Source: Lingula anatina (lineage: Eukaryota; Animalia; Brachiopoda). Taken from it: a stretch of 64,000 nucleotides of DNA. The DNA lies in assembly GCA_051362555.1 (NCBI GenBank), contig CM120640.1, positions 13,330,001 through 13,394,000 on the forward strand, in the 5' to 3' direction. Each line of letters opens with the position of its first letter. The stretch's first letter is position 1. Positions 34,324 to 63,916 of the stretch are shown here, in pieces. A program made the position numbers and the translations under genes. The notes below the pieces were generated by a model. The model did no database searches, had not been told where the DNA came from, and saw nothing but the letters and a program-made list of their open reading frames with translations.

Positions 34324-35616
34324 TTAGGCTTTGGTAGGTCCTCGATCAGCCAGAATATGGGGCCCATCAAAAAAGATCCCAGTTGCACCTCCGGCAGTGA
34401 CGATCATGAAGATGAAAAATAGTAAACGGTCGATCACGTGAGCTATGTATTTCCAATCCTGAAGTACCTGAAAGAGTTATTCAGATAAATCAATACACGT
34501 GAGTATCTCTCAGCAAAAGGCTTTATCTCTATCCATTCCTTTCTTTTTGAAGACAAACACTTTTTTTAAATGACTTAAAAAGGGACATACAAGAAGCCTG
34601 ATTATAATTCACTTACCATGGCTGTTTCATCCACGTTTTGCAGGTGATCGGCTATGAAAGCGACTCTTTCAGCGGAACCGATGACGTCACTGCTGATACT
34701 CTTTATATGACCCATGCACTGCGGGCAACTCCCGTCGTGGACCTGAAGAACTCCATCCGCCCATTTGGGCGACAGATCAGAATTTCCAAAAAAGGCAAGA
34801 TTGATCATTTTTTGATACTTTTTTCTCCTCTTCAATCCGCGAATATACAGAGCGTCGTGGTTGGGTCGTCTTATCATCAGAAGTTTGGGGAGGTAGTTAA
34901 GAAAGACTACTCGCACCCAGCGGTTCATTCGATGTGCTTTAGGAGACCTATAATGCCAATTAATTAGGATGACTGTGTTGAAGACTGATATGATATTCAT
35001 CAAGAACGTAAAGAACAGAAACTCGGCGATAAGAGGGACTGCTTCTGAGTTTGGTGGCAGAAGCTTAGACACAAGAATAATGAAGAAAACCAGAGAAACG
35101 AGAACTGAAATTGTCAATGTTATTTTCTCCCCTGCTTCTGCGGGCAGATAGAAATTAAAGACACTCAAGGTGGCAATAAGCATACATGGAATAATCAAAT
35201 TCACGATGTAGAAGAGAGTTTTCCTTCTTATTTTCAAAGTGTAAATTACTCGTGTTGTCTTAGTATTTCCCTTTTCGATCTCTATAATTTTTCCCTCTCC
35301 GTCGACTATGCCCCAGATTCCACTCGGCATGTAGTCCATTAGGTCAGTATTACTGTAGTTCCAGAAGACGCTCCCGTCGGCGTAATAACTTATGTACCAA
35401 TCAAACCCAAACTCTTCACTATTGTATGTCCATGAGCCAAAATACATATCACAAATCTGCTCATCAAAGGGGAAATATTTGACATCCAGTTGACATGAAC
35501 TTTTGTAGATAGCGGGCGGAGCACGAAGAAGATAATTCGAGCCACCTGATGTGTCGGAAATGTTACTGTATATGATAACATTTGACTTGTAGTCCTCTGA
35601 GAATTTGCCGTCGGCG
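34324..35616 (-). CDS. Gene C 3' cassette 5 (distal, most diverged): exons 34617-35616 and 34324-34467
   Basis: Phase-2 acceptor ctag|C GCC GAC GGC; Cys-loop CQLDVKYFPFDEQIC; TM1-3; donor GTAAGT; terminal exon VLQDWKYIAHVIDRLL...DRGPTKA*. ORF intact. Confidence 0.9.
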
Positions 35617-36884
35617 CTAGGTGGAACAAGAGAAAACAAAAAGTGCGTAATGACTCTTCAATCAAATGCGTGAGTTTAATCATAGAAAATTTATGTGGGG
35701 ATGTCAACCAATTCAGTGTTTACTTCGCGTGTGACAGTACAGAAAATATAGCGGTTAATAATAGTGAGCTGGTACCTGTTAAATGACACATCAGGGTTTA
35801 AATAAAAGGATGGTATAAAAGAACTGTCTCTTAAAGTAAACTATACAACCACGATGTAGAAGAAAACCCATACTTGTGTTTCTAAAATGAATTCTTTGGG
35901 AGAAGAAGTATAAAATAAAGTACATTATTTATTTGTAAAGTTTTTTTTACGCACATGCTGATACCGTGAGTATAGGAATTAAATCACAACATAAAAACTG
36001 CATAACTGGATGTGCATGCAAACAACTCTGCATTTCACATTTTTCGAGATTACAGGAAAAGGATCATTAATTTATTTTCTTCCTAAGCTATTTATCCACA
36101 CATGTTATGAAGACATACACTTTACAGTGCAGATACAATATGCTTTACATATAATGTATAATCAGTAACACAATTTGAGTACAAAATACTTGAAACAAAC
36201 ACATAAATGCTGCACCTTCGCATTCATCACACCTACACTCCTGCACACACCCAACCATATCTATATATATAATCAAATGTGCACTGTGTAAAGCGTTAAG
36301 AGACATCTATAATCCCCTGAGAACAGATGTTTCCTATTTTGTATTTTCGGTAGATGGAGTATTTTACTTGAGAAACTAACGGAGTGTTGATAGCTGTTTG
36401 GATGAAGCAGATATTTGAAAGCGATGTTAGTTTTCACCCCAAAAACGTTGCTGTTACGTCATCAGCTCGAATAAGCAAAATCACCCCAATGTACAGTATG
36501 TTTGCTGCGAGGACATTATCTCATATCATCACAATGTTCATTACGCATTCTTCAAGCGGATAAGGAAAAAAATGCTTACAAACCAAAACCTCTGTTATTC
36601 TGTCCTTTTTCTTGTGTAAAATTAACTTCAATCAAATGCTATTCAACTCCTTTAATGAGGCCAGGCGGTAACGTGAATAAGTAAGTAATCTTAGGTATCC
36701 ATTCTGATTTTATCGACACAATCGATATATTTCATTATGATGAGTTATCAATTAATTATATTACGACAACATATCGTTTATTTAATTGTTATATTCTGTG
36801 ATTGAAAAGCATCAGCTTTAATTGCATGTCACATTCTACATTTTGTAATCAGCCTACGCCCGTCTCGCTAAAATCCGACCTACG

Positions 36885-37052: not shown

Positions 37053-38517
37053 CTACGTTATTGTTGCTTTACCTTTAAAACTCGCAAGGTAACGTTAAAT
37101 ATTATGATGTCACTCGAAGATCATCATAAATGTGAAGTTAAAAGGGTTAAAAACGTATTTGACAAGATAGTTGTTGGCAAAAAGGGTCGTTTTTAATGCA
37201 CGGTAGATATTGCTTTCAGTGAGATCAACACATAGCCCATGCAAAGCATGCATACTTAGCTAAAAACATAAATGCCACAACAAAGCCATCTTTAAACTCG
37301 CAAGATTACCACAAAAAGGTTTTCGTGTTTTTTATCACTTGTACCATCTCAATAATCTTTGTCCCAGTCTAAATTCAAATGACTTCCACGTGTAGTTTTA
37401 CAAAAAATAAATACTACCACAACATCTCTCTTCTTTCATGGAACTTTGTTGTTGAGAGTAATTGTTACTGGTTTCAGTTGGCGCTTTACTGCCGTAATCG
37501 CTACCTTCTCCTCTGAAACACGGTTCAGGTTCAAAGCTTAATGGTCAAAGAAAAAAGTTGTGCCCACCCCCTTTCAGCTGCTGCTCGATTTAGGTAAAGC
37601 ATCCTCTGTCTTACTGAGTCTATAACCGGTGTCTGTTTCGTTACGTGGGTAGATTAACTTCGCATATTTCTCCTTTTGAAGCACGTATATAGTCTCTGGA
37701 AAAACACAATCGAAGCTCGCACTCACACGGGTATGTTATGTATGAAAGGTTGGTGACCGAAAATGGAAATTAGTAATGATGGTCGATTGATATGTTATTG
37801 AGGACTAATATAAAGAGCTGAAAACGGGAAAATAACGGCTATGATATGAACATTGGTGGCGCCTCGTTAGACATACACGGTATGATACAATCAGGCAGAA
37901 TAATTTCCTCCGTTTAATTTTTATAGTGTTATGTTGTGTAGGCCCCCCTAGTGGTGGCGCCTCCTAGCGGAGGATACCAGGAGACGCTGGGCAGGTTGGG
38001 CAAGTAAGTTAATAAGTCAACTGTCGAGGTGTTTAAATGTAGACGAATTGAAGGTGATCAGCAGAATAAGTCCAGAAACCAAATTCCATCATGCAGATTT
38101 TGTCGTCGAATGGGAAATGGCGTATGTGGGCTCTTGTAAATGACCACATCAACCGGTAGCCAGGCAGTTCTTGTCGGCAGCGTTAAAATTAAAATGGAGA
38201 TAAGTGCGCTGCATATGTTGCATCCTTGAATTTAGTTTTGTGGGGAAAACTTTAAAAATTATTGATTTTATTGATTTTCATAAAAGGATTATTATGAAGT
38301 GAAGTCGAGTATGGAGTCAACACCACTAGCAGACCAAGATTGCCAGTATCTTATGCTTTCTCATGGAGCGTTAAGGTCGAGCACAGAAAACTTATCACCG
38401 TCTTGGACGAACTCACGCTTCACCATTATCGCCGAAAGCAAACTAAAATGATGACTGCGCTTATTTCTACAGCTTTTCTGTATACGTCAAATGATAGCCG
38501 GATGCCATTCTTAATTA

Positions 38518-38743
38518 CACACAATGGACAATAGAAGTGTCACCCCTACTGAACCAATACTTTGGGGGAGATAAATGACTGTGGAATGATGTACTCCTGG
38601 TATTATTTTATTATCATCAAATTTCACAAAATGTAGACCGGGCAATATAACTACTCAAGATCTGCCTACTTTGATTATTGATTACTTGATTATGATTTGA
38701 TTACTCTGATTCAGGGGGTGACACTTCTATTGTCCATTGTGTG
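38518..38743. mobile_element. Tc1/mariner-type MITE, 226 bp
   Basis: Perfect 29-bp TIRs cacacaatggacaatagaagtgtcacccc with TA on both sides. The TIR core aagtgtcacccc is shared with the Tc1 fossil at ~48690. Confidence 0.88.
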
Positions 38744-40520
38744 TAGTTGACATTAAATGGGTAAATCTTTGTGGTATTATGAAATTTTTATCACCCGATT
38801 CGTAATAGATTAGTAGTTATTAAAATACTTCTACTGCCAGCATCACGGCTAATAGCAATGACCAAATTTCCAAGGATTAAAGCAGGTGCTACAATCTTCA
38901 TTTTCTCTTTAAGCATAATACACGCTGAGTAAAATATCAAATATTATCAATTTTAAACATGCAAGGACAGCATTTGCGTGTTGGTTCTATCAAAGTAGAA
39001 TGAACTGAAGGGTGTTGCTGATATGCAGTTAATTTTAACACAGGTTGGGATAAGCGCGCAGTGCGTCAAACCAAAATATGTACGTTGTCCACATAGGTCT
39101 CAGACGTTGAAAACTGTCCAATAAAATGAAATTCTCCTCAAGATTATTCAAAAAGGGACAGTTAAATAATTATTTGAAATTCGAAACACAAATATGACGG
39201 CCCTGTTGACTAAAAAGGTATAATTTTGATGACAATGTTGAGGAACTTTCGTGTTTGGCGTGTGTAACACCAAAACCGTTAAGGCCACCCACTAGTTTTT
39301 ATTGCCCCATGACGGTTAATTTGAAATTTATTGATACATGTACAACTTAAATGTTTGTGAATAATTTTTTCTGAAAAAATCAACAATTGCTTCACTCATC
39401 AAGCACTAATATTGTAAATATACATGTATGTAGCAGGTCTCGTCGATCAAAAATGCTTAATGACGGGGGGAAGGGGGCGGGGGTGTTAAGCAAGAGTCAC
39501 AAAATATGGGCAAACCAAGTTAATTGCAAATGGGTTCCAGCAAAAGCAAAAGCACAAACCGCCTATTGCTATTTTGTTAAGCCCTGCAGTAGAACAGCAG
39601 GTGGTTTAATATTGGATTATTATTTCATGATCAATAACGATAAGCCAGAGGAGAAAAGGGCGTGAAGCATGGTGCAGTGGACTTCGTTTTCTCTTGCTAC
39701 TTATTTCTTAATTTCAAAACAAAACAAAACTAAGCACATTTTCTCTCAAATACGATCTATCACTCCTACGGCTTCGAAAGTGTATATTTTTTAAAGCTCG
39801 CTATGTTTGCTAATTCTAAGCTTGTGCTTTGTGCTTATCAGACTTTAAAGTGCACATTTTCTTGAATTTATTTCAAAATCTAAATAGCAGAAATACAAAA
39901 AAGGAAAGGGGTTGGTGCAAAATAGTTTCCTTGAGAACCGAGGTAGGCCTACATGTATTAAACTGCCTAAGACCCTGTGTGCAGATTCACTTAAATGCTT
40001 CTTGCATCTCTATAAGAGCAAGTACATCGAATTTTTGGACGAATTGCCAAATGTTTACCAATGCTTCAAAAACCAACGAATAACAAGGGTTTGAAAACGC
40101 CATGCGCTTCATTTTATTGATTCTAATTTTACTCAAGTGAAAATATAGTGAGTGTACTATATAATAATGAATGACTACAAATAGTCGTCAATTATGAAAT
40201 CATAATGAAAACAAACAAATAAACGTTACGACTTTAACATTTTTATCACTAATGTCCAAGAGATCTATTACCATTTATAGCGACATTCAGGTAAGAAATA
40301 TGCACATCTCAACGGAAAAAATTATTCAGATATCCCTTACTGTATTCATTATTTTCGTAATCACTGTAAAAATCCAAAATCAATAACAGCGCCGTAAAAG
40401 TTTTCTCTTTGACAACCACGTTACAGTCTGCTCAAAAATACTAGTTCCATCCTTTTTATTTTTTTTTTTCGTTCCTAAACATTTCCAGTTGAGACATTCT
40501 TATCATCGAATATCGCCATG

Positions 40521-41954
40521 TTATGAAGTTAACGCTTCTTGCCTATGAAAAATATGCGGAACATTAAAAAACAATCCACATGTTCCGCCAATGGTCACTA
40601 TGAAAAATAAATAAAGCAGCAAACGGTCCACCACCAAAGCAAAGTACTTCCAATCTTGAACTTCCTGAAATTATAGAAAGAAAAATCCTATTATGTGTAA
40701 TCGACATGTAATACCGAAACCTAATGAAATTTTATTACGCACCGTGCATTCCTACATACTTACATGTATGTACTGTGTAGTATGCATGTCTAGGGCTAGG
40801 CGCACGGTTACAGAGTTGAGTTCTTCGCTATCGCTATCTCATAAGCCATAGATGATCAGAAAAAAAAAGGAAAAGAGAAAGGACACACAGAGAAGGGTGG
40901 AGATAATATAAAGAGAGAAGGAAGCAGATACAAACTCACATTCTGGGTATCGTCGCTTTCCTTCAAGTGTCTAGCAATGAATGCAACGTCATTGGCTGCA
41001 TCCATCAACCTTTTTGGTACATTTCGCTTACTGCTCTCACGGCCATCTTTCGGATTTTGATTGCTGGCCGTCTTGTATATTTGCTCTGCCTTTGTAGATT
41101 TTGGTGCTTTTAAGCTAGTGCCCGTGACTTCTGTTGATAATGAGGACTCTTTCAATGTTGCCATCCACCTTTCCTCGGATGTTAATTGTTTCTCTGCTGG
41201 ACAGCCTCGTCTGTATTGGTTTTCGTGATTCGGTCGCTTAACAAGGAGCAGTCGTGGTAAGTAGTTCAGAAATACTACTCTCACCCACTTTGGCATACTG
41301 TGAGAATTTGGGGATCGAAAATGCCAGTTTATAGTCATTACAGCCAGAAGAACAGATACAATGTTCATGATGAAAGTAAACATGAGGAATTTGACTATTA
41401 GTGGGACCGATAACGATGTCGGAGGTAATAACTTTGAAATAAGTAAGATGAACACTACTAATGCGATAAGAATAGAAATGCTGAGGGCAACTTTCTCGCA
41501 GGCTTCACTTGGCAGGTAAAAAGTTGAAACGCTCAAAAAGGAAATCAATATACAAGGTATGATCAAATTAACAATGTAAAACAAAGTTTTTCTTCGAATC
41601 CGTATGTAATAAATAACTCGCGTCTCTGCAGGTTTGTCATCTTTGGCGGCTCGATACACAATGGCCCCCGGGCCTACTACAATATCCCAAGTACCACTAG
41701 GCATGTAGTCGGCCAGGTCTACTGTACTGTAATTCTTAAATGGTTTTTCTTGATAATACCAGTCGAAACCAACTTGTTCCCCAGTGTACGTCCAAGAGGC
41801 GAAATGCATTTCACATTCTTGCTCATCAAAAGGGAAATACTTGACATCGATTTCACATGAACTTTTGAAGATAGCTGGCGGGACGTGTAACATTGTTCCG
41901 TCTTCGTATACGACTACATTGGACCGGTAATCTGTTTGATATTTACCATCAGCA
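40521..41954 (-). CDS. Gene C 3' cassette 4: exons 40940-41954 and 40521-40664
   Basis: Phase-2 acceptor ctag|T GCT GAT GGT; Cys-loop [15 protein letters not shown]; TM1-3; donor GTGAGT; terminal exon EVQDWKYFALVVDRL...FHRQEALTS*. ORF intact. Confidence 0.9.
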
Positions 41955-44672
41955 CTAGAATTAATTAAAAGTAGTAAAATAAAACTCAACAAAAACAAAA
42001 CTTAAAAACATAATAAACTAAATATAAAGTTGTATTTAAAGGATTGCAATATACCAATAGCTAGAAATCATAAGAGTAAGCAAATAATGACAACACAAAC
42101 AGAAAGATTACAGTTTTAACAGATACAATTCTTACTAAAAACAAACCTACGTAAAATCCATGCATAAGATATTCGTTGAGTTAAAACATTGGAGTGCAGC
42201 TGGGAGATCAATGTGGCAACTGTGTGATAAATAACCTTGATAACATTCTACATGTACTTCTGTAAGGTGCTCTCACAGTGAAGTAACAGTGATTTGAAGA
42301 ATAACAGTTTTGAAGAACGATGGCATTTTGCATCTTTATGTTATTTCCATAACAAAAATTTCTTAAGTTGTTTGGATAATAATGGGAAATATTTGTGTGT
42401 TGTTTGTATCTTGGCTTTTCTACTGGTATCTTGGCTTTTCTGCTGCTCGCCGCTTCTCCCGATGGCCTACAAGTCAGCTTCGACATGAATGTGCAAAGTT
42501 GACATGTTTAGAGCACACTGTGTATGTCCAGACTGAACGTCTTTTTAACAAAGATAAAATTGCGCAGAAATTCATATCATCATCAACTGATTTATTTTGC
42601 CAACATCAGCGACAAGGCGGGAAAGCAGGGACTGCAGCTTAAAATGCACACAGGAGAAACTGGTCGATGAATGATATAGGTTGAGCAGGTTGAAACAATG
42701 AAACGTGGTCAGTATAATCTAAATACAACTGGTCATGTACATCCAATGTGGTTATTCAAAAATAAAGAAATTTTAAAGATGTAATATCTATATGTAATAG
42801 AAACTGGTTGCTTTCAACTACAAAAAACAGATAATGAGTTGAATAAAAAAAAACGGGCATAAGGATAAAGCATTCCCGTTTGCAAGCTTTTATTCTTGAA
42901 TATGATTGATGTACATTAGGCGAAAAACTGACATCTCTTCAAACTGGCTCAATTGAGATGCGACTTTGATTTGCTTGCTATGGTCCTTGTCGCTGTTTTT
43001 ATTAATAAAAGCATCCTAAATATTTCTAAATCATATTCATCTGGTGTTTCAATACATTTCTTTTTCTTTTAATCGACAAATCCGAATAAAATGTCTGTAC
43101 GGGGTATTTTTCATATCTCCATTAAACATTTGTATGCCCCATACCAAAAAGCTTGTAAAATGGCTATTCCTTATTATGTAATACAAAATACAAGGAAATT
43201 AGAGCAAAAGCATTCGGTACTACTTCCTAAATAAATATCCATTGTTTGTAATTATCAATTCTATCAAAGCAGGGTTTTTAGATGAAGCAGCTGGTTAACT
43301 CCCCTTTCTTCTACACGTACACGTACAAGTATAGTTGCATCTACACAATGAATACGTTTTTTACAATCCATGAGGTGAAATATACAGTCTTCTTTTTTTG
43401 CCTAGTACTGAAGATTCTATCTAAATACTTCCTAAAAAGGGTAATCCTAGCAAATCACTGAGCCCAACCAAGTAAACGTCAGCTAGTCGGTGGTCACACT
43501 TACATCAACAAGGAAACAAACCATGACGATTTCTACAGAACTCCTGAAATCTCTATCTCTAAATGTACTATTTTCACAACCGTGCAACAATTAAATTATC
43601 AAACATAACGTGTATCACACGCTATGCATATGTTTGTACTATATTTTGGACCCGAAACATAGGCTACACAAGTCTTTTTAACAATATTTCAAATTGGATT
43701 TAACTACATGTATATGCAACGTTTAAATAGACAATAGTATGCTAAGGGGGGCTCCTTAACGGCTGTATATCAGCAACAAGGTCAATTTACTTCATTCAAA
43801 TACCTCGACTAAACGATATACACAAACTGTTCCCCTATTAACAATATCCCCTTGGATAATACTGACAAATATTGCAATCACGTAGAATATCATGTACAGC
43901 AATTTCAAACATACAAATATCACCATCAAAGACCTTCATTTACGTTAACAATCACCGTAATTTCAATTTAAAGTAACATTAAGTTTTATATATATCCTAC
44001 TATCTCCGGGCAGCCTTATGAAATAAAAAGCAGAAAACAGGAATAAGTGGTGACTCCCGGAAATGAGGCGGAGAAAGTGGGGGCATCTGGATTCAAACGC
44101 ACCCCCACGCTCCCTACGTGGGTATTATTCAGATCGTAAAAAATACTATGACCGCTAAGTGAACTTTAAAAGCATTTTTACAAGCAAATAAGGACCTATA
44201 TATACTACATTATTCAGCATCATTAAGCATTTTAGGACAAGTTGAGGTTTTTCCAACATAAATTTACTACGTTGACTTATTCTGTAAAGGAAAACCTCGG
44301 CACAATAAGAATTAAGATCCCATATCAACATTTTACAGGTAATGTAAAATATGTAATTAGAAAAAGCTAATTTTCAATGTCAATAGCTTATTTCAATGAG
44401 ACTGAACCGTGTATAAGTTCGTGCATATTATAACTAAGTTACAACAGATGCTTAAAACAATTCACTTCTTTTGTCCCCCAAAAAGGTATCTGCAGTGTAA
44501 ATCTTGTACGCATTCAAGTGCTTCCATGTGTTGGCAGTTGTTGCAGTGTGAATACGTAAGTTTATTTCATGTATATTTGAGTTTGGATTTTTTTCATGTA
44601 AGAAAACGCGCGCAGCTCATGCGCGTGTTGGTGTGTGTGCGCGCGTATGTGTGTGAGAGAGAAACGTTTGAT

Positions 44673-45934
44673 TCATCCAGTTAAGGCCTCTTGGCGATGA
44701 AACAAGTGTGGAACATCAAAAAACATTCCCAATGTCCCGCCTGCGGTGACTATGAAAAACAAGTAGAGAACCAATCGGTCCACCACCAAGGCGAAGTATT
44801 TCCAATCTTGTACTTCCTGCAATAAAAAGAAAAAATTAAAATATACGGTAAAAGAAAAAATTTAGCACAGAAACATTCTCCGCAAAGTGGCTTAGTATTT
44901 TTTTCTTGAGAGAGAGAGAGAGAGAGAGACTTACATTCTCATATTCATCACTTTCTTTCAAGTGTTTAGCAATGAAAGAGACAGAATCTGCCGATCTGTA
45001 GATTTCTGGCAAATAGCGGCGGGGGTTGTTTTCATCCTCCATTTCATTATGGCCGTTCGTCATGTAAGAGTGTACACATGTGCTCTGACCACCTGAAGTT
45101 TCTTTTGATTCTAAATCTCGCATATTTCTCTTCGAAGTCGCCGGGGTCATCATTTCTGAACCCTGTTCAACTCCCTTTCGTTTCTCCCAGCCTCGACGAT
45201 ACTGTCCTTCGTGATCTGGACGTTTGACAAGGAGAAGTCTTGGTAAGTAGTTTAAGAACACAACCCTGACCCATGTTGGCATCCTGTGCGAATTTGGAGA
45301 TCTAAAATGCCAATTTATAGTCATAACAGCCAGGAGAACGGAAATTATGTTCATTATAAATGTAAACATAAGAAATTTTACAAGAAGTGGGACTGATAAC
45401 GATGTTGGGGGTAACATCTTTGACATCAGCAAAATGAACACAGTCAATGCGATCAAAATGGATATGCTGAGCGTTATCTTCTCACATGCATCGCTCGGTA
45501 GGTAGAATGTCCCAACGCTCAAAAATGATATCAATACACATGGTATTATTAAGTTCACGATGTAAAACAGAGTTTTTCGTCTTATTTTCAGGTAATAAAC
45601 CACTCGTTCTTGGGATGGTTTTCCGTTTCTACCTGGCTTATTAATGATAGCCCCCGGTCCTACAACGATGTCCCATGTGCCACTTGGCATATATTCAGCC
45701 AAATCAACAGTACTGTAATCTTTGTCATCGTTTTTATACCATACAAACGTGAGTTGGTCGCCAGAGTATGTCCATGAAGCAAAATGCATTTCACATTCTT
45801 GCTCATCAAAAGGGAAATACTTGACATCGATTTCACATGAGCTTTTGAAAATAGCTGGAGGCACGCGCAACATTGTTCCGTCGTTATACATGACTACATT
45901 AGAGCGGTAATCTGCTTGATATTTCCCGTCGGCG
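44673..45934 (-). CDS. Gene C 3' cassette 3: exons 44935-45934 and 44673-44816
   Basis: Phase-2 acceptor ttag|C GCC GAC GGG; Cys-loop [15 protein letters not shown]; TM1-3; 118-nt GT-AG intron; terminal exon EVQDWKYFALVVDRL...FHRQEALTG*. ORF intact. Confidence 0.9.
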
Positions 45935-47349
45935 CTAAAATAAAATATGAACAACATGTAGAGGTCAAACAGATAAAAGCATGTGCAATTAATCAATCAA
46001 TCAATTAATAATCAATTGAAAAATATTGCGATAAGTTCTAATATAAGCTTACGGTAAAACAAAATCCAATGGTTTTCTTATATTATTATGTCATACCTAT
46101 ATGCTTATCAAAACAGTTGCTACTTACATATACAATCTGTTCAAAAATGACTATCCGATAAGGCAGAAATAACACTCTCGCACACGATGTTTGTCGTTGC
46201 ATTCTTTTCAAGCGAAGTGCAGCAGATGAGAAAAAATAGTATGGAAAGAAGACCCGTGACTGGAAGTCAATCGCAGACTATAGTTCAGTGCTATTAGAAA
46301 AAAATCTACGTCAGAAGCTAAGCATACTACAGTAGTATATAATCTTTCACTATAGTTTCCATCCAGGCCAAGGCATTGCAGTGCGAAGTCTCGGGCCTGT
46401 TCCATCACACAAACTGAAATCACAGACGTCGGCTTTTGTATTATCGCTATCACTCAGTGTACTCTCAACAAAACCATGCGTCCTAGTCAACTGCACAGAT
46501 TGGACGACTAATTTCCATAGTTAAGTGTATGGTCTAATAGTGTTATCAAGCCAGCAAAGCTGTCACAAGTCACGTTACTTACGATTTAGTTACATGAAAG
46601 AGCTAAGACATATGCTTTATGTATATATTTATATACATATATATATATATATATTAGTGCTTCTCCAATACAGTTCTATCTGGGGTTGTCAAAGTGCCAT
46701 GACTCAAAATATAAGCATGATGCAGATATTATAGCCGAGAATATGTAGATATACTTAGTCATCCATATCAAAGCCACATTTACCTTTGTTTATAAAAGCA
46801 TGTTTGATTTATTAATTAGCACATGTCATTACGAGAGAGAGTGTGTGGGAAAGAGATAGAGAGAGTGGGAGAGAGAGAGGGAGAGTTTTACCATACCCGT
46901 ATATGGGTGGATACCAAACACATGTATAATACTGAGAAGCACGCATGATTCCTATAAAAATAACACGGTAAAACAGGTATCTTATTTTCGGCAATTTGAA
47001 GATATCGAATTCACATTTCCGATAATTGGTGCAAAATGGAAATGTTTTAAAGAAACTTTTCCAATTGTTAAAGGAGAATATCATATAATGAAACAAAAAA
47101 ACTTTATTTCACATCAATGATTTTAATATACGTATTACTGGTATGTAAAATACTATACGGCGTAACTGCATCTATGCCATACTGCTGTTCATATACATGA
47201 CAAAGTTGGAAAGGGACTTTGGCAATGGTATCCAAGTATGTATAAACAAAACACGCCATGCTTGTAATTAATTTGTAACAAATCTGTTTTAGAATGTATC
47301 TCTAATATGCTAACATATTCTTGTATTATCTAATACAAATTGATCTATA

Positions 47350-48949: not shown

Positions 48950-48993
<44 letters not shown>
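48950..48993. repeat. (CT)n microsatellite
   Basis: Direct reading. Confidence 0.95.
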
Positions 48994-48995
<2 letters not shown>

Positions 48996-49312: not shown

Positions 49313-50983
49313 TCACTTAGAATCACTTCCTATGTCAAATATCGTTTTGGCATTGAAGAAAATCCCCACTGTTCCACCGATGTTAACAAGCAAAAAGATA
49401 TAGAGTAGTAGCCGATCAATCACCATGGCAACGTATTTCCAGTCTTTGAGAACCTGCAAAATCAATAGAAAACATAGATTAGCTGTCAAATAAACCTGAT
49501 AAACCTTGGTGTATGTCCCAGCGGCCAGTGGTATTCTGAGAAAATATCCTCTGTTCGGACCAACCAGGTCAAACCAATATGATATAGGATGATCTAAGGT
49601 GGGTCTCGATCATGCCTCAAGTGATCAAGTTTCGACAATATTTATCAAATTCAAATTTAAGAATAAACATATTGCGTCACCTTATTAAATTCGTGTTTTT
49701 GGATGCATTATGTGAGATTGATGTATGGCCATAACGATCACTTGATTCGTTATACACCTATACGGCACGATATTGTAATAATAGACTTCCAATCTTGAAA
49801 TAAACTTATACTGGTCACGCCTTAGATTACCATTTTGGCATATAGAAAAATGGTTTTAAAAATCAATATTTAAGATGGTTTCATCACAATTTTTGTAACT
49901 AGTATTACGTCTGCTACATGCAGTAGGCCTGTATGATAAAAAATGAACATCTTGGATGCAGACCTTTAATTTGATCGTGTGCGTGTGTGTGTGTATGTGT
50001 GTGTGTGTGTGTGTTTTCAGTATTCTAGCACACTTACGTAAGAATGGTCCACTCGGTCCCGGACATGTTGAGATATAAAGTCTGTATTTTCAATAGCACC
50101 CAGCACTTCTCTTTTTGTGTCGGATCCACTTCTATCCTGGTATGCACTCTCAGTTTCTCTGCGGTCTGAGGAACTAGTCAATTTAATATCACGAATGTTT
50201 CTCTCCTTTTGTTTTCTCTTTTCTTCTCTCTTTTTGAGACCTCTCATATATTGGCCGTAATGATCTGGTCTTTTCATAAGGAGTAAACGAGGCAAATAAT
50301 TCAAAAACAATATTCTTACCCACATATTCATTCTGTGGGATCTCGGCGACCGATAGTGCCAATTGATAATAATCACAGTCGTGAAGATGGAAACGATGTT
50401 CATGATGAAGGTGAACAGTAAAAATTTGGCAATAAGAGGTATTGAGGATGATGTTGGTGGAAGCATCTTGGAGATCAGAAGTATGAAAACAACCAGAGAG
50501 ATAAGTAGAGAGACGCACAGCGTTATCTTCTCACCGGCGTCCGTTGGTAAGAAAAACGTGCAAACACTAAGAAAAGAGATCAATACGCATGGAATAATCA
50601 AATTCACTGTATAAAATAACGTTTTACGCTTGATTCGCACTGTATAAATGGCTCTTGTAAGAGTTTGCTTGCCATCTTGAGCTGGAATATGAATAATTTC
50701 TCCCGGTCCCTTAATAATATCCCACGTCCCGCTGGGCATGTAGTCACTTAGATCTAGCGTGCTGTAAACTTGACCCTCGCTTTCATACCAATGGAATCCA
50801 AGTTGCTCTCCACTGAATGTCCACGAGCCAAGTGTCATTGGGCAGTCCTGTTCATCGAATGGAAAATACTGTACGTCCATGTGACAGGTGCTCTTGTAAA
50901 TGGCAGGGGGAACATGCAACAAAGTCCCGTCGTAATATATGACCACATTGGACTTGTATGAGACCTGGTAATTACCGTCAGCG
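49313..50983 (-). CDS. Gene C 3' cassette 2: exons 50038-50983 and 49313-49453
   Basis: Phase-2 acceptor ctag|C GCT GAC GGT; Cys-loop [15 protein letters not shown]; TM1-3; donor GTAAGT; terminal exon VLKDWKYVAMVIDRLLL...IGSDSK*. ORF intact. Confidence 0.9.
49977..50014. repeat. (GT)n microsatellite next to the cassette 2 donor
   Basis: Direct reading. Confidence 0.9.
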
Positions 50984-52839: not shown

Positions 52840-54318
52840 CTAGCTATGCGCTTTCACTGATCCCTCTCCAACAGCAGTGAATATATTGGGAGCTTGAAGA
52901 AATATGCCCGAAGTCCCAGCAATATTGACACCCAGGAATATCATCAGAAGTAGACGATCAATGACCAGAGCCACATACTTCCAGTCTTCTAAAATCTAAA
53001 ACAGAAGGAATATCAAAATTAATTTGTAAAGTTTAAATAACTTTTTGTTGAACTTTGTAGTCGTATTTTCAGGTATTTGGACCACGTTGTAAAACATGAT
53101 GACGATCACGCTGGAAAGCGCCCGATGTGCTGTCCCAAGGTCTTACATAAGGATTTCTACATGAGGTAATGGAACCAACCAATAGTTGCTAGTAACTTCT
53201 AATATTCTTAAGTAAGAGCAGAACAGTAATTAATGAGCGTCCATGGGTAAACGTGCGTATTGGATCCAATAGTGCCGTCCAAAGCCCAAAGACTGTTCAT
53301 ACTCACGTCATTGTATTCGTCTTGATCTTGCATGTGCTGGGCAACAAAACGGACATTATCTGCGGCATCATAAAAGTCCGCTGGCAAGCTATTATGTTCA
53401 GGACTGCGAGAGTTACCGTAAGTCCTCTTATTGCGATCCCGTGAGGGGGAGCGACCCAGATTGTGTAGTTCTGATAACTCAAGAAGTTCGTTTCTTGGGC
53501 TAGGCGTGTACAGGCCATATGGCTTACTGTCCCTGTTATGGTCAATATGAGTGTATATCTCTTGCTTTTGCTCAGCCCGCCGTAGGCCCTTAAGATACTG
53601 CTCCTCGTGGTTTGGTCTCTTCATGCACAGGAGCCGTGGGAGATAATTCAGGAACACAATTCGCACCCACTTTGGCATAGAGTGAGATCTGGGCGACCTG
53701 AAGTGCCAGTTGATGATGATCACAGTTGAGAATATAGACAATATGTTCATGATAAACGTAAAGAGCAGGAATTTGGCAATGAGTGGTATCGTCAGTGACG
53801 TCGGAGGAAGCATTTTAGACACCAGTAGTATGAACACTACCAAAGCGATAAGGATAGAAATACAAAGTGTTATTTTCTCTGCTCCGTCCGATGGTAGATA
53901 GAACACTCCGACACTTAGGAAGGAGATCAACACGCATGGTATTATCAAATTCACAGTATAGAATAATGTTTTTCTCCTTATCTTAATTGTAAATATAACT
54001 CTAGTTTCCATTGGTTTGCCGTCCTTTGGGGGGAAATCGACAATCTGCCCGGGCCCTCTTAGTATATCCCAAGTCCCACTTGGCATATAGTCATTAAAAT
54101 CCACTTCGGATAAGTTCATGTGCCACAAAAACCCGACTTGGTCGCCATTGAATGTCCACGAACCCATTCGCATTTCACACTCTTGTTCGTCGAATGGAAA
54201 ATATTGCACATCAATCTGACAGGCACTCTTGTAAATGGCTGGAGGGACGTGCAGCATGAGTCCATCTTTGTAGATTACTACATTAGATCTATAAGAAGCT
54301 TGGTATTTTCCATCAGCA
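52840..54318 (-). CDS. Gene C 3' cassette 1 (proximal): exons 53307-54318 and 52840-52995
   Basis: Phase-2 acceptor ccag|T GCT GAT GGA; Cys-loop [15 protein letters not shown]; no vicinal Cys; TM1-3; donor GTGAGT; terminal exon [17 protein letters not shown]...VKAHS*. ORF intact. Confidence 0.93.
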
Positions 54319-56083: not shown

Positions 56084-59000
56084 TTGTTAAACAGGACAAT
56101 ATCTGGAGTCCATACTTTGTCCATGGGTACGCGGATTGACGAGATCCCTCCATAGTCTGCAGGGTCCCACACTAGCTGATAATCATACCACACCTGGGGG
56201 GAGATACAGGAGATTGGATTAGACTGGGTTCCCATCCCTAGATCGATCTAACAGGATCGGTCCATCTCCAGGGGGTCCCTCGCTAAATTGCTTTCAGCCC
56301 AAGAGGCTTAGACGTCTGGTACGCCTACTAAAGCTGCTAAGCGATAGTTAATTACCCCTATCAGACAGACATCTAAGCCGCCCAAGTTAATTGTAATTAA
56401 GCGAGAATCCCCTTGGAGATAGTTCGATCCAAAGTTAGTACGATATTCTCTGGGAATGGTCTCTTATTAGGGTACGTAGCATTTAAGTACAAACTTTATT
56501 ATGATGGAATGTTTCACAGAACAGCTTAAGTTAAAAATCGGTCTTTGCTTAAAACTGCTATGAATCTTAGCTCTAAGGGTGCTTTCCCAGAGATTTAGAT
56601 CGATCTAAAGATTAAGTTTTAGATCGACCTAACTCCCTGGGGGTTCACGCTAAATTGCAGTCAGCCGAGCGGGCACCATAGTTAATTACCCCCTTACAGC
56701 TTTTAGTAGGCGGGACAGACGCTTAAGCCGGCCAAGCTGACAGTAATCTAGTGAGACTCCCCACAGGGATAGATCGATCTAAAAATCTATGGAAATGTTG
56801 TATAAGTTGCGTTCCGCAAAGTATCTAACCTATTTTACGGCCTATGATCTTCTCGGCGATGTTTTTCTCTCCAGGATAGAAGCCCATTTAAGTATGTCAA
56901 CTACATTTATTGTGGGCCAATCGTTCGTAAACGGCATCACACCAATAATACGAAATCGACTTTACCTAATGACCATCAAACAAAAGCAGCATTACCTAGT
57001 ACCCATCCCCCTCCAAGAAAAATGAATAAAAAGATAAAACAAATTCATGGTGGCATTCGAGAGTATCACATCATGCAGGACGCGAGGAGCTTAGGCGCTT
57101 ACTTCACCAAAACTGCAAACAAATAATCATATAGGCTGTGTTTATAAACTTAAATGAACACGTTTAAAACAGGCAACTTTCTCACCACACCAGGTGTTCA
57201 CTTTTTTTAACCATAACCACTTATCAAAGAGTAAGACCATGTGAACAAAATTATGCATGGAAGTGGCCTTCTGAATCGGATTAACCCAAATACAGAAAAA
57301 AAACTTGCCTGGGATATTTAAGAGAAGTCTAATTGATAGCTATTGTGCAAATGCTAAATTGATAATGTTTTTTTCAATTTACAACTAAATTCAATGAATT
57401 AATCTATTTTAATTATTTAAAGGATAGAAATAATTGTATAAGTCCAAACAAGTGCACATAAGCTTCAGACAGAAACTGCATGGCTGACATGATAACCTCA
57501 GAGCCTGCCCTGGATCTGTCAGAGTCACAGAGAACGAAATTCACCTTGCAATGGACCCACATCTTCGATGAATTTTGTTGCAACCGTTAGAAATTGTAGT
57601 TAAATGAGACCCAATGAGAAACTCAAAAAAATCTTCTGACATGCCCAAGAATCATTGCGCTGACTTCATTTATACTGGCACAAGGATTTTCTGACAAAAC
57701 AAAGTACCCCTCAACTGCACTGTGCACAAATGGCAATAGTAATTTATTCCGATGTAATCTCAGCGAAATCACCCCTTTCGTAATCCGATTTTAACACAAT
57801 AGCATCTATAAGTGTAACAATCGAAAAGCGTATTGTTTATCGATAGCCATTTAAGATGCCATTAACAGGTAAAAGTGAATGATGTTTGTATATAAGTATG
57901 ATTTCCAATCGGTTATGTTTGTATACACAAGGTGCACACTATAAAGCACGCCCTTTTACTTCCCAGTTTCCTTTGGGCATAATCCCCAGTCATGTATACT
58001 TATTGATTAACTTTAGAATAGATTAAATAGGGCAGATACATTTAATTACATATTGTTGGAGGAGAATAAGACCGTTCTAAATGGGCACGGTCTTACAAAT
58101 TTGTCAAAGGTATATAGTTCCCTATTAGTCTATCAATCATAAAAATGTTAAGCATGAAGGCTTCACGATAAGGTCTTCTGAGTTCAGCAGCAGAAAAACG
58201 TATACTTTGATACTTAATTATTGATTTTAGAGAGAAAATGGCGCGAGTACAGGACATAATCAAGTAAAAGAGAAAGCTAGGCACTGAATTGTGACAATTC
58301 ATCATCAGATTTAGTGTGCATTGTTCTTTTTGTTTTCGACAAAAGGCGGTAGTCGATGTCTCCCGACTCTTGTCGACCTTCGGTTTAGACCACTGACAAG
58401 GGTTCAATTAATATTGATAAAAAGTAGTAAGATAATTGACAGAGAAATTGATCAAAATCGTTAGGTTAAAATAACCAAATAATTAGTTTGGTCTTTTCAC
58501 GCCATTTCGGTGCGCACAATGCATGGCTGTAATAGAAAGGTTATTTCAGTTCTCAAAAGTTCCTCCTGTTTTGGTATTTTGGCAGGTGCTTTGTTATCAA
58601 AGATTTGCATTACATAAACATTCAGATAACCGAAAGAAAGACATCAGGAAACGAATGTCTGCGCTAGCCATTATAAATGGTCACTGCGCCTCATGTATGG
58701 CGATGCCATACACTGCACCTGTTAAAATAAACCCACCAGTGTGACTTTCATCTTCCTTGCATACCTCATATGATTGAAAATGAGGATCACGGACTTCTTT
58801 CTTCCAAAAATGTGATCTTTCCTCTGGTATTCAGACTGGTTTGCACGCCGTGACCGACACCAGGCACTTGCCAACATTATACGATCATTACACTTGTGTT
58901 CGGAATTACCTCTATTATGAAATCTATGCACGTTCTGCCAAACCATTCTCCCACGCCAAACTAATTCATTGTAATAGCTTTAAGCCTTCTTCGCGCATCA

Positions 59001-62000
59001 TTAATCTATATTCAATTTGCCTCTGTTTTAACATCCCAAAACACCCGGCCCTGAATTATTCACTCCGTTTCCTGAGCAAGTACATGCATAAGCATACAAT
59101 ACATGTACAATTTATTCGTAATTAGGATTGCCTTGGATAGTATGAACGTTCGGTTGGGTTTTGTGGGTATATTACCACTCCCTGTTACAACAATGTATAA
59201 CAGAACGACTACATAAAATAACATGTTGCTGCTGTTGTTCGATATTCTCACAGATAAAGAATACTTAGCCTGGGGTGTTTGGTGATTCACACGTAGAGTA
59301 AAACAGACACGTGGCGGCGTGAAAGGTGCGGTTCACCAATATGTATATTGTGAAAATGGAGTGTTAAAATGGGCGGCTGTACATGTTCAGGGCCGTAGCC
59401 TGAGCAAAATGCCAGGGGGAGCAGTAAGCGGACACGAGGGGGCAAAGCCCCCGAGGGGGTGGGGTGGGTGTGGAAAATTTGTAAAAAACTGTATGTATAA
59501 TACTGCATTCTGGTGCATTTTAACTGTTATTTATTGCTCAATCAGAAGTCAAAAATTGTGGGTTCATTTTGCCATTTTGCCATATTTGCGCCTCAAATCC
59601 CAGGGGGGGCAGCTGCCCCCCCTGCCCCCCCGGAGGCTACGGCCCTGATGTTGCACAGGGCCTGCAGGCCTACGTATGCAAATGACCTGGCACTTGCATG
59701 TACGTGCGTGCTCAGTATGTAATGTGCCTGAGCGTTCTCTTGTATCCTCGATTCTCACATACCATATGAATAAGTGCATATATTTGCACGCACATATACA
59801 TGTATGTGCGTCTACAAGAGTGCATACATGTATATGGGATTTATTCAAATGTGCGTGATTGAGGAGTCATAATTTACCACACTTGGTTAGCTATAAACAG
59901 TATGTGGGAATGGTTGAATATAAAACATGATATTGTGAATTATTCTGAGGTCATCTTCAAGCTATATGAAGGCAACAAAGTCCAGACGAACTGTCTTGTC
60001 GATGTTTTTTCAGAATTGATACCGTTTCGTGGAAAAATGTTCACATCGCCACAATCAATGATTCGACTTCAAAGCTACAAGAATTCCAGATTAGACATAG
60101 GTCATACGGAAATGACGAGAAACTCCAAGTCCCAAGTGCATATTTACCCGTCATAATCACATAGTCGACTTCATTAACGGGTTTTCTGAGTTTGGAAACG
60201 AATACGTAGTGAATTTTAGCTAAGCTAGCAAGTGTACATGTCTTGTTCTTTTTTTTACTGCTGTGTGTATATTTCTTTCTGAAGTATATTTCGATGTTTG
60301 AAATATCTACACATTCGATCTGAGAAGCAACCACTGAATTATATGAAACACTGTAATGAATGCCTTCCTTTTATTTATCTGCCCTTTTGTCGACAGATAT
60401 GTTAAAGTCGTTATTACATGAATATGTGTAATTTACACTCCTCAGGGAAGAACAGTAGTAGCTTCGAATATTACCAGTTGATCTATTAAGATTGTTTTAC
60501 CGCTAGGGCCATTTAAGCCAATACTGGTCAATAAAGTCACTTACCGTTTGCAGCCATACGTTAGTCTTCATGATTTGATTCTTTTCGTCCTGCAAAAAAG
60601 ACGTCATTCATATGATAAATGGTCTTAAAATTGATACACGCATTTCTAATAGAGGTACAAATTAGCCAATTCGTTAACCCAGAGAAATAATAAACTGTTT
60701 TTGTGATATAACAGAATAGAATTAAATCAACATGTGGTGTTTACACGAACTAGTAACATTTTAAAAATATATAACACTTATAAAGACATAGTCTAGACAG
60801 TCGAAACGAGCAAATCGACCCGAAACTGATACCGCTAAAAAGAGATCAGCAATAAAGAACCGCAATGATGTTACAGATGCTATGCGATCCTTCGTTCTCT
60901 CTCATGGGTACAGTTTTATAAAAATCATTAAACACGGCAGAACATTCAATAAACAATAAATTATGATTAGCCGTAAATGCGGCCGTGATTCAGTGTGGGA
61001 AGTTGGGCGTCTGAGGCTGTCCTGATAAACACGCGGAAGGATATTGATCATGTAGTTCTTATACCCACGAAAGGGCACCAGGTGGAAGACGACCAAAAAG
61101 ACCAGTCGATATTTTTTGAATGAGGCTTTCAATTGTCAGACCGCACTTTGCTAGCGAACGAGTTCGAAAAGAAGCATTGGTTGTTATTAAACAACAAATA
61201 GTATTAGTTCACCAAACTGTTTCACTATTATCTACTGGCAAGCGTACAACCTACTTCCCGTCATAACTTCCTTAGAGTACAAGAAGTCTTCTAATCCCTT
61301 GACTTTAACAATATCACACAGTTTTGAGGAAACGCAACTTGTATATGCTTACGCTTATACCATGTAAAATGGATAAAATTTGTTTTAAGTGTTTTGGGAC
61401 AATTTCTGATAAAATTGCAGATAACTTGTTATATAGCATAATGAGTCCGGCAGTCTTTTAAATGCACCCCAATAGCAGCTGAGCAGGCCTTGGCTGTTCA
61501 ATCAGTGTTACATCCCATAAACTGGATACGCCAGACCAAATACAATTCTCAAGATCACGACATAACATGATACAGAAACTTCTGTGTTTAATGTCAACCA
61601 AAAAGTGCGCATCATCATATAACGATCCCTAAGTCATATCCAGATGGCGGAAAGCGAGTCTAATGGCGCAATCTGGCACATGGCGGTTACAAAGAAGAAT
61701 CAACCGCAAATAATTCCATTTTGCAAATTTAGAAAATGGGAGAAAATGTTTTGAGACCCTTCGCTGTTTGATATTCTCTTGAGATGCTTTGTGATTATGA
61801 AATTGCTACAGGTCTTGTACACCTGGCTTTATGTTAGTTTGTTTTAAACAACCTGCAGCCCCAATGGCAGGCCAAATCAGAAACATGATAACACACGTAA
61901 GTATCAGGTAGCTGTAATTGGCAAGTGGCACTTCGGATTACTGTTTTAAACTTCTTTACAGTACAGCAACTGTTGCTGAGTTGCTACTTCTAATGAGTAA

Positions 62001-63916
62001 CCCCAAATACAATAACCTCCACAAATCAGAAGTTGATTAGTTGTGTTTTTGTATGACCTTACTTCCTGACAAAATCTTAACCCTCTGTCTGAAAGCAAAT
62101 GCTGTATATCTTTACTTGTAGCGTTTTTTTCCTATGCTCGAACCTTTCAGTAGAGCAACGCATGGTGAGAACACCTAACTGCGTCTTTCAGCAGAAGCAG
62201 ATGTGCTCTTCACTGAAGACATTAAAGGAAAACATATTTTTTCTACTTGAACATTCCTGTAAAGATCATGCCCTGCTTTAAACCAACATCACTTCTCTCA
62301 GTGGAAACCACTTCAAGGCGCCTTTACGCACCCTTAGGCTTGTTAATTTTGTTTGGAAATCTGTCCTCATCATTGAGATCTAACAGTTACTTCGAAAATG
62401 TTGGATTAAAACAAACAGACTGTTGGGTTAGAAAATGTGTTGCGAGTTTGCGCGTGCGTCGAGTGTAAAACCAGAACGTGAAGAATGCTAGAACTTTAAC
62501 AGATTGATCCGCCACACAGAGGTTTATTAAATATTAACGGGGTATTCTGTGCTGAAGAAGGCAATGACAATTTGCGCAGGCGTTATATTCTGGTGGCAGA
62601 ATTGAAATCACAGTGGCAGCACAAGTGAATGAGCCTTCACAGTAACTGACTCTGGGTTAATAGGTACATTGTGTCGTATTTTAGGGTTGTTTAGATCATA
62701 ATGTGAGCTAGATAGCCACTGCTGCAATTCATGTCTGGAAGAAAATTCCTCTAGTTAGTTTCCTTTAATGGGTAGCTTGTACGTGTCAAAATGCATTAGA
62801 GATGGGATCTGCTTACGGCACTCGCAACGGAAATAATCTTAGCAAAAAATTAGTCTGATAAGAAGTTCACCTATTTTTTCATTTCTTATTGTGCGTCTAC
62901 ACGAAACATACTATTTATATCAGCGTGTTATACTGCGCCCCTTGGTTCTTAATTATTACGCCGTGGTTTGTATTGTCTATTCAACGTCGTGTTTTATTTT
63001 CCTTTTTTTGTTCTATCAGTGTAGCTTTAAAATGACAAAATACCAACGAGGTGTACACAGAAGGCGTACACTTTATAACCTACCACATTTGGTTTAAGCC
63101 CCATTTGTTTTGAATTCGATATTTTAATCAGAATCGTAAAACATACCCACTACTTCCACTAGTAATCCCACCGACTTCTGCCACGCAACTCTTCATGCTT
63201 ATAATATGAAATAATCAGATATACACTAAGATATTAATATAAATTGCACCCTTGACAGCCATATTTCGTCCTGTAAAGATCTATCTTCTTCCTCGACTTA
63301 CTGGTTGATAAGCAAACCGAGAGCCGTAAATCTGATAAGATGCTTTATTGAACAATTCCTCTGGACAGAAATGAAATGCACACTAACACGATGGTGTTTG
63401 ATAGTCCCAATCTCCAGGAGTGCTACAGCAGCAATTAATGTGTAATTCGTAGTAAGATGTAATAAATCAAAAATATGCGGTGCAATAATCACTTATGTGA
63501 TTCCTTTGAAATTGCACAGAATTCTGCTAATATAAGGTGCAGTAATGTTGAAAATAAGGGAAAGTAGTCGAAAAAGACAATAAACGTGTGTGTGCGTGTG
63601 TGTGTGTCTGTGTGTGTGTATACACACAAACAGAGAGAGATATGCTTGACCTAAAAAAGAATCAAGGATATTAAATCTGCGTTCTAAATCTTTTAACTAA
63701 GCACGTCGTTTACCATAGTTCTGAGGTTTCGAATATTTTAGCTGTCATAAACACATTATGAGTAACTACTTACCACATTGATGAGTTGAATCATAGTAAG
63801 TCCAAAATTGATCATTAGCTTGTCCGACAGGTTTTGCACAGGTCGTATAAGTGGGTTATAACCTGTCTTGTCAAAGAGGTCCTCCACCAGTTTGCTTTCG
63901 TCTTCGCTACCTAAAC
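56084..63916 (-). CDS. nAChR non-alpha (beta1-like) subunit, gene C: shared N-terminal exons 63774-63916, 60545-60589, 56084-56193; signal-peptide exon outside the window
   Basis: [26 protein letters not shown]...IQLINV | [15 protein letters not shown] | [36 protein letters not shown], typical of invertebrate beta1-type subunits. The last exon ends with a phase-2 donor AA|GTAAGT. Confidence 0.92.
56228..56795. repeat. Two adjacent copies of a ~200-bp palindromic (fold-back, MITE-like) element
   Basis: Copies at ~56230-56460 and ~56580-56795 share tagatcgatcta, ggggt..cgctaaattgc, tagttaattacccc and taagccg.ccaag. Each is internally inverted (ggcttagacgtctg / cagacatctaagcc; tctccagggggtccctcgctaaattgc / gtaattaagcgagaatccccttggaga). 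Confidence 0.75.
59388..59647. mobile_element. MITE, 260 bp, CAGGG-terminated
   Basis: Perfect 13-bp TIRs cagggccgtagcc/ggctacggccctg, flanked by a 5-bp direct repeat atgtt. Confidence 0.88.

Follow-up and report, generated by a model that had tools for sequence, protein, structure and literature searches.

In the brachiopod Lingula anatina, a nicotinic acetylcholine receptor (nAChR) beta1-like gene has a single set of front exons that RNA reads join to one of five tandem C-terminal cassettes, cassette 4, and that is likely spliced to each of the other four as well, each transcript likely ending after the stop exon of the chosen cassette. We put the probability of this reading at about 85%. 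In its favour are the splice junction from 56084 to 41954, reads on cassettes 3 and 1, spacers free of N-terminal exons, selection on the cassettes, the RefSeq models and the precedent of the nematode gene unc-49.

The gene lies on the minus strand of the window, i.e., the whole 64,000-nt stretch of L. anatina DNA that was analysed, which contains no N. One N-terminal exon set is followed by five two-exon cassettes, and the signal-peptide exon lies outside, past the window's end. The features are the following:

63774..63916, minus strand: shared exon 2 (mature N-terminus), 143 nt, AG/GT ends, same as in the RefSeq isoforms
60545..60589, minus strand: shared exon 3 (loop D region), 45 nt, spliced to the next exon in 28 (run X4) and 14 (run X7) reads
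56084..56193, minus strand: shared exon 4 (loop A), 110 nt, its 3' end being the common phase-2 donor GTAAGT
52840..54318, minus strand: cassette 1, exons 54318-53307 and 52995-52840, open frame
49313..50983, minus strand: cassette 2, exons 50983-50038 and 49453-49313, open frame
44673..45934, minus strand: cassette 3, exons 45934-44935 and 44816-44673, open frame
40521..41954, minus strand: cassette 4, exons 41954-40940 and 40664-40521, open frame
37740..38182 (lower end approximate), minus strand: decayed sixth cassette, tblastn E=6.6e-8, translation and acceptor read directly
34324..35616, minus strand: cassette 5 (most divergent), exons 35616-34617 and 34467-34324, open frame

Each cassette consists of one large exon and one exon with TM4 and the stop. 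All five begin at the same codon after an AG and have a phase-0 GT-AG intron at an identical position; when fused to the shared exons, none of them has an internal stop. They represent 74-75% of the full isoform, and the spacers between units measure 1856-4904 nt. The coordinates, the phase-2 donor at 56084 and the five open two-exon units given by the first-pass annotation were all borne out on re-reading, as was its estimate that the cassettes make up about three quarters of the protein. It had also placed no N-terminal exons in the 1.9-4.9 kb spacers and a full set in each of the neighbouring genes A and B, and here tblastn agrees: with the shared N-terminus and six other N-termini as queries, private N-terminal exons were absent from the spacers, each N-terminal exon being present three times in the window (in the cassette gene and in genes A and B). 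Between 56083 and 34324 every N-terminus match had an E of 0.006 or worse, the best of them being on the opposite strand.

The Pfam ligand-binding domain (PF02931, 1-216 of 216) and membrane domain (PF02932, 1-233 of 233) are complete in all five isoforms. In the alignment, none of the five cassettes has the loop C vicinal cysteines; M2 is of the cation type, with Glu at -1' in every one, and the 9' gate residue is Ile or Val instead of Leu throughout. This Leu-to-Ile/Val change across all five is new in this analysis; vertebrate alpha5 and beta3 probably have a 9' valine. The top database matches, among those listed, are named beta-like 1, and the closest solved structures for the cassette-4 isoform are human beta4 and beta2. 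A quick tree, in which the window's two alpha-type genes were the sole outgroup, separates these two with support 100. The predicted gene product is an nAChR non-alpha (beta1-like) subunit. Its isoforms would all carry one signal peptide, identical first strands and the same loops D and A, whereas loops E, B, F and C would vary, as would the Cys-loop, every membrane helix of the four and the cytoplasmic loop.

The same locus is represented in RefSeq by XP_013406813.1-XP_013406818.1 (isoforms X1-X6, automatic annotation models), in which all five cassettes are placed on one N-terminus. The window differs from these proteins by no residue in cassettes 1 (XP_013406813), 4 (XP_013406815) and 5 (XP_013406817), and by one residue each in cassettes 2 (XP_013406818) and 3 (XP_013406816). 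The five-isoform arrangement is already in RefSeq; a literature search found no paper on this Lingula cassette gene.

RNA reads from four of nine L. anatina runs (X1, X2, X4 and X7) were mapped to positions 40801-60800 only, a stretch outside which cassette 5 lies, using about 6% of runs X1, X2 and X4 and about 25% of run X7. Runs X4 and X7 come from different studies and different library types, X7 consisting of oligo-dT reads; in run X4 first mates lie on the plus strand, matching the expectation for minus-strand RNA. The junction from the shared donor at 56084 to cassette 4 at 41954 was found in 21 reads with 13 starts in run X4 and in three reads with three starts in run X7. It jumps 14129 nt and cassettes 1-3, shows GT..AG on the minus strand and has up to 75 letters on its short side. 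Runs X1 and X2 gave 0 reads at this junction and no depth on the four large cassette exons within 40801-60800. Among the 15 of 39 joints listed for this stretch, most of them from a repeat at 56219-56800, no junction leads from donor 56084 to cassettes 1, 2 or 3. The earlier proposal that the shared front is spliced to five alternative cassettes is thus supported as a mechanism, by the 56084-41954 junction, selection, the absence of private N-terminal exons and RefSeq, and one of its five junctions has been seen.

Exon depths, which are approximate, differ between the two runs. Run X4 gave 22 for cassette 4, 2.9 for cassette 3, 1.3 for cassette 1 and 0.8 for cassette 2, the last two being near intron background; run X7 gave 5.2 for cassette 3, 2.1 for cassettes 4 and 1 alike and 0.4 for cassette 2, with 0 in the adjoining intron bins (about 37 reads covering cassette 3, about 13 cassette 1 and about two cassette 2). 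Shared exon 4 reached 47-48 in run X4 and 13-17 in run X7. Depth continues for 1.2-1.9 kb beyond the stop of cassette 3 and then falls to 0.54 (run X4) and 0 (run X7) before the acceptor of cassette 4; the 3' UTR of cassette 3 likely extends to about 43400-42800. Positions 43016 (five read starts) and 43306 (five ends) of run X4 were considered as a poly(A) site and dropped, as these reads may be copies of one fragment. The motif AATAAA is frequent in this AT-rich DNA.

The cassettes are 51-71% identical to each other in protein. Core pN/pS is 0.19-0.38 in all ten pairs and that of the extracellular half 0.22-0.43; dS is saturated in eight of the ten, and the two measurable pairs give a dN/dS of 0.09 and 0.12. 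Both ratios agree with the earlier view of selection rather than decay, with dN/dS well below 1, and as judged from the coding sequence, purifying selection acts on all five cassettes.

The sixth cassette, at approximately 38182-37740, carries AA where the acceptor AG should be, in addition to stops and frameshifts; when the five cassettes were compared with it by blastn, there was no match at E 0.01. This decayed copy with its dead acceptor is new in this analysis and is not among the six RefSeq proteins. It offers an example of how an unused cassette looks.

Could only cassettes 4, 3 and perhaps 1 be used, with 2 and 5 silent or recently dead? Cassette 2 has about two reads in run X7 and background depth in run X4, cassette 5 lies outside the read-covered stretch, one cassette of this locus has already decayed, and the A form of unc-49 is, in the available parts of its record, barely expressed and non-functional. 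We nevertheless regard such a restricted use as unlikely: cassettes 2 and 5 keep intact frames and splice sites despite a dS to the other cassettes that is saturated or about 2.8, their pN/pS is 0.24-0.38 and the RefSeq models include both. Moreover, the shared exon depth of 47-48 in run X4 is about twice that of cassettes 4 and 3 together (about 25), which would leave room for cassette 5. Quite improbable, in turn, is that some cassettes have private promoters and unrelated 5' exons, giving N-truncated, possibly dominant-negative subunits similar to CHRFAM7A. Exons of that kind would escape tblastn, and CHRFAM7A, in the available part of its description, is a case of an nAChR back-end duplicate that has been retained as a negative regulator (PMC4890170). 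However, the number of reads that join the shared donor to cassette 4 is about what depth predicts (21 junction reads for a depth of 22), and the five acceptors all keep the phase-2 position that fits this donor, in front of extracellular halves under purifying selection (pN/pS 0.22-0.43).

Another route to the same isoforms would be partial trans-splicing of separate precursor RNAs, which short reads cannot tell from cis-splicing. Drosophila mod(mdg4) and lola are trans-spliced 3'-variable arrays, in which variable exons may lie on the opposite strand or be joined between alleles, whereas the Lingula cassettes are all on the same strand, in order, at most 21 kb from the donor. In run X4 same-strand reads occur in almost every intron bin between the donor and cassette 4, a pattern that fits a single precursor, and we give trans-splicing very little credence. 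In its favour, the regions tested yielded no RNA-pairing element by which a choice in cis would be guided. Dscam-type arrays have a single docking sequence and, ahead of every variable exon, a selector with which it pairs. Within the 600 nt after the donor and the 400 nt before each acceptor, such pairing was not supported, as 5 of 30 shuffles did at least as well as the best shared window in summed energy and 2 of 30 did so in the weakest partner; out of 376 inverted repeats, most of the 25 longest are microsatellites or local repeats. The window comes from a single assembly, and stacked alleles or separate genes with collapsed front exons could imitate the array. This artefact is largely refuted, and its probability close to nil, since the cassettes are far beyond alleles in divergence (51-71% protein identity, dS saturated), reads join a single donor to cassette 4 in a window without N, and the RefSeq proteins, which differ from it by two residues, yet place five cassettes on one N-terminus.

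For the preferred reading, one gene with a common front and alternative cassettes, the following course of events may be proposed. In the ancestry of Lingula, tandem duplication at an old intron would have multiplied the last two coding exons, and one copy would have lost its acceptor and decayed. The choice among cassettes would be made in cis, with 3'-end formation at an upstream cassette competing with splicing to a downstream acceptor, and would differ between samples. Heteromeric cation channels may use the five products as alternative non-alpha subunits, and differences between isoforms would alter agonist sensitivity, gating and trafficking. Going further, and tentatively, brachiopods might have evolved, independently of nematodes, a compound receptor gene of the cation branch, in which one promoter would serve five beta subunits; these would be distinct from each other in half the binding face and the whole pore, have an altered 9' residue, be devoid of the loop-E tryptophan, be switched by tissue or stage and be mixed in pentamers. 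If this were so, it would be the largest array of this type found described for a Cys-loop receptor, one in which cassettes can still be seen to arise and decay, and it would provide a natural series of chimeras on a constant N-terminus.

The design itself has precedents. The first-pass annotation knew of no whole-channel cassette array in a Cys-loop receptor; a claim of novelty fails, since unc-49 and avr-14 already have this design. According to the available parts of PMC8841521 and PMC11296113, in Caenorhabditis elegans unc-49 a common N-terminus under one promoter is spliced to one of three tandem C-termini, the forms being unevenly expressed and UNC-49B/C co-assembling. Both genes, as far as those accounts go, have a single copy of the N-terminal exons, tandem C-termini with the channel domain and their own stop, and splicing to a non-adjacent copy. 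However, unc-49 is a GABA-gated anion channel of nematodes with three copies, whereas the Lingula gene, with five and one decayed, belongs to the nicotinic cation-channel branch in a brachiopod and is not its orthologue by descent; given this difference, the Lingula array would have originated independently. Furthermore, the Cys-loop cysteine C167 of UNC-49 is in the shared part, in contrast to Lingula, where the whole Cys-loop and loop E are in the cassettes. The nematode glutamate-gated chloride channel gene avr-14/gbr-2 (AVR-14A/B) also combines, by alternative splicing, a shared front with different channel halves, but its two forms have an identical ligand-binding domain, to go by the title of Laughton 1997, and Lingula swaps about half of it.

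The same design was also sought elsewhere, as pairs of proteins identical before the boundary and less than 0.75 alike after it. Of 211 proteins, 125 had enough N-terminus, and among the 40 of 508 pairs listed only 14 pairs of Lingula isoforms fit. Six proteins among 143 further representatives, checked by motif, had doubled motifs; P0332, P0333, P0355 and P0417 were rejected because they also repeat N-terminal motifs and look like merged whole genes, and in P0335 only the binding domain is repeated. Among the matches listed (120 of 2884, 120 of 446, 120 of 255 and 150 of 16743), none was an orthologous cassette of a named brachiopod or phoronid.

Within the nicotinic family, the available part of PMC4890170 describes human CHRFAM7A as a duplicate of CHRNA7 exons 5-10 with its breakpoint in intron 4. 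On that description it resembles Lingula as a back-end duplication of an nAChR gene, but it is fused to foreign exons, has a partial binding site and is dominant negative, whereas the Lingula copies reuse the original front in full-length subunits. With vertebrate exons that probably measure 45 and 110 nt, this intron 4 may be homologous to the Lingula boundary. In insect nAChR alpha6 the alternative exons are the small single internal exons 3 and 8, in contrast to a terminal two-exon unit that makes up three quarters of the protein. The insect gene, in the accessible part of its description, has mutually exclusive duplicated exons, as in the Lingula design (PMC1919356).

The weight of the present case is limited by the fact that the design is precedented, the isoforms are in RefSeq and the functional roles are predicted ones. 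Molluscan nAChRs, as portrayed in the available part of PMC6896357, have expanded by retroposition and whole-gene tandem duplication. Beside these, cassette duplication constitutes another route of nAChR expansion, which surveys keeping one protein per gene would overlook. The five isoforms, including their common 9' gate change, represent a natural experiment on a constant N-terminus. Compared with the nematode genes, the design of a shared front and a swappable back would have arisen again, this time in a nicotinic receptor, where the boundary lies so far forward that binding loops are exchanged along with the pore.

The beta1-like nicotinic acetylcholine receptor (nAChR) gene studied here, on the minus strand, has a common front end followed by five tandem two-exon C-terminal cassettes (c1 to c5, acceptors at 54318, 50983, 45934, 41954 and 35616). 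The front end includes the following exons, in window positions:

63916-63774, minus strand: shared exon, part of the common front end
60589-60545, minus strand: shared exon, part of the common front end
56193-56084, minus strand: shared exon 4, carrying the common phase-2 donor

In each of the five cassettes, an exon of 946-1015 nt is separated from a TM4/stop exon by a phase-0 intron of 118-584 nt. The exon and cassette coordinates of the first-pass annotation were found to be correct, and none of the five models, once spliced to the shared exons, contains an internal stop. Of each protein, 74-75% is encoded by the cassette, and every isoform has complete ligand-binding and membrane domains. 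The large exon of c1 is 100% identical to a Lingula anatina protein, which assigns the window to this brachiopod. Furthermore, six consecutive RefSeq isoforms (XP_013406813-818, named X1-X6; automatic models) place the five cassettes behind a single N-terminus, which begins with either of two signal peptides, and our models differ from them by 0, 1, 1, 0 and 0 residues for c1 to c5; the five-isoform layout is already implicit in RefSeq. Isoforms X1 and X2 differ in their signal peptides and are identical in their cassette; the gene may have two alternative first exons, beyond window position 64000.

RNA reads of four of nine runs under the same species label (runs X1, X2, X4 and X7) were mapped to 40801-60800, a stretch outside which c5 lies, and 15 of the 39 joints were examined, most entries being taken up by a repeat at 56219-56800. 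Within this stretch no expression was found in runs X1 and X2. The shared exons were joined to one another by 28 reads in run X4 and 14 in run X7, and the donor at 56084 was joined to the c4 acceptor at 41954 by 21 reads (13 starts) and 3 reads (3 starts), respectively. This joint spans 14129 nt and passes over three intact cassettes; the array is therefore alternatively spliced. Approximate exon depth in run X4 was 22 for c4, 2.9 for c3, 1.3 for c1 and 0.8 for c2, the last two close to intron background, and in the oligo-dT run X7 it was 5.2 for c3, 2.1 for c4, 2.1 for c1 and 0.4 for c2, with 0 in adjoining intron bins. That c4 is the deeper in run X4 and c3 in run X7, two samples made as different libraries, suggests a regulated choice. 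Depth extends 1.2-1.9 kb beyond the c3 stop and falls ahead of the c4 acceptor, as would be expected of a putative 3' end specific to c3. In run X4, shared exon 4 has about twice the depth of c4 and c3 combined, and the remainder may belong to c5.

At 6 of the 110 positions of shared exon 4, between 56101 and 56172, reads of run X7 differ from the window, against 1 position for run X4; this suggests a high level of polymorphism, which could serve to phase front and back ends. The repeat at 56219-56800, built from some three units of 175 nt and bearing inverted arms, stops about 25 nt before the acceptor of this exon; all four runs cover it at a depth of 270-700 and show numerous loose ends there, which identifies it as a transcribed high-copy element.

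A tblastn search of the window, using as queries the shared N-terminus and six N-terminal sequences from relatives, found each front exon three times, in the studied gene and its two neighbours; between the donor and c5 it found no private front exon and no match better than E=0.006, the best of these weak matches being on the opposite strand, in agreement with the earlier claim that the spacers lack private N-terminal exons. Other features of the window are:

about 38182-37740, minus strand: decayed sixth cassette (tblastn E=6.6e-8)
25086-19285, minus strand: gene A, an alpha-type nAChR gene with the exon plan of the studied gene
8952-3908, minus strand: gene B, an alpha-type nAChR gene with the same exon plan

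The decayed cassette carries stops and frameshifts, and its acceptor AG is replaced by AA. Just upstream of it sits a MITE-like 34-nt inverted repeat (38513-38748; 97% complementary, arms 168 nt apart). Genes A and B lie downstream of the studied gene, forming a three-gene cluster; the vicinal cysteines of loop C are present in B and lost in A. Their large exons share 65-82% DNA identity in the extracellular part and 89-98% in a stretch of about 400 nt from TM1-3, where gene conversion may have acted.

Protein identity between cassettes is 51-71%. Outside the cytoplasmic loop, itself weakly conserved (pN/pS 0.54-0.98), pN/pS is 0.19-0.38 in all ten pairs; dS is saturated in eight, and dN/dS is 0.09 for c3/c4 and 0.12 for c3/c5, well below 1 as had been expected. 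In a quick tree of 54 rows the five cassettes form one group (SH-aLRT 99), separate from annelid, mollusc, nemertean, flatworm and arthropod beta1. A 29-row tree groups them with P0346, a protein encoded on a 1876-nt contig (support 100), and neither recovers nor rejects a clade of the five alone (p-AU 0.40). P0346 may derive from a related animal or represent a further copy; its identity to the four cassettes that rank among its best matches is 46-58%. It is a cassette-like single-exon product with a 9' Ile, and a close match to none of the five. Judging from these trees, with their long branches and a sampling without a named brachiopod or phoronid, the array likely originated on the branch that led to Lingula.

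Most likely it began with tandem duplication of the final two coding exons, the break falling in an old phase-2 intron that is also present in genes A and B; each copy would thus have brought its own acceptor, stop and 3' end. One acceptor would be used per precursor, the transcript ending after the chosen cassette, and access to a later cassette would require read-through of earlier 3' ends. Docking/selector pairing beyond chance was looked for and not found. Of the five-way splicing coupled to polyadenylation that the first-pass annotation had proposed, splicing to a distant cassette is directly seen at the c4 joint, among the 15 of 39 joints, while we infer the polyadenylation step, the joining in cis and the roles of the products. 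Altogether, we give a probability of about 0.85 to a shared front spliced to c4 and likely to each other cassette, likely ending after it.

When the products are aligned with human beta4 and beta2 and standard loop positions are applied, the shared exons carry loops D and A, and the cassettes loop E, the Cys-loop, loops B, F and C, the four helices and the cytoplasmic loop. All five cassettes keep Glu at -1', lack the vicinal cysteines and have His or Arg at the loop-E position that is Trp in 183 of 186 relatives. The 9' gate position is Ile in four and Val in one, and Leu in 195 of 196 beta1-like relatives compared (196 of 205 fit the pattern, with many near-copies among them). More distant representatives lack Leu at 9' in 24 of 110 M2 segments; the change is therefore rare for beta1, not for the family. 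In addition, c4 has Ala at 2' and c5 has Phe at 13', the latter present in human beta4 too. Effects of these changes on gating are predictions.

A literature search covering few subscription journals found no published account of this locus, or of any nicotinic receptor gene arranged as such an array; the words Lingula and isoform do not occur in the part seen of a lophotrochozoan nAChR survey (PMC6896357). CHRFAM7A is described as a back-end nAChR duplicate with a different outcome (PMC4890170). Where the Lingula design is absent, whole-gene duplication is the usual course, as in Ruditapes, whose second paralogue has its own N-terminus and is therefore a whole-gene duplicate; two beta1 paralogues, on contigs that are equally long, occur in each of Ruditapes (P0039/P0075), Mactra (P0027/P0194) and Mya (P0045/P0162). 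The claim that Cys-loop receptors offer no precedent does not hold, since the C. elegans GABA channel gene unc-49 and the nematode glutamate channel gene avr-14 already have a shared front and swappable backs. These belong to the anion branch and Lingula to the cation branch; unc-49 has three copies and avr-14 two, against five and one dead in Lingula, where the boundary lies earlier than in unc-49, because a Cys-loop cysteine of unc-49 falls in its shared part. The Lingula array is real and confirmed in part by RNA, and in design it is a nicotinic counterpart of unc-49 reached by convergence.
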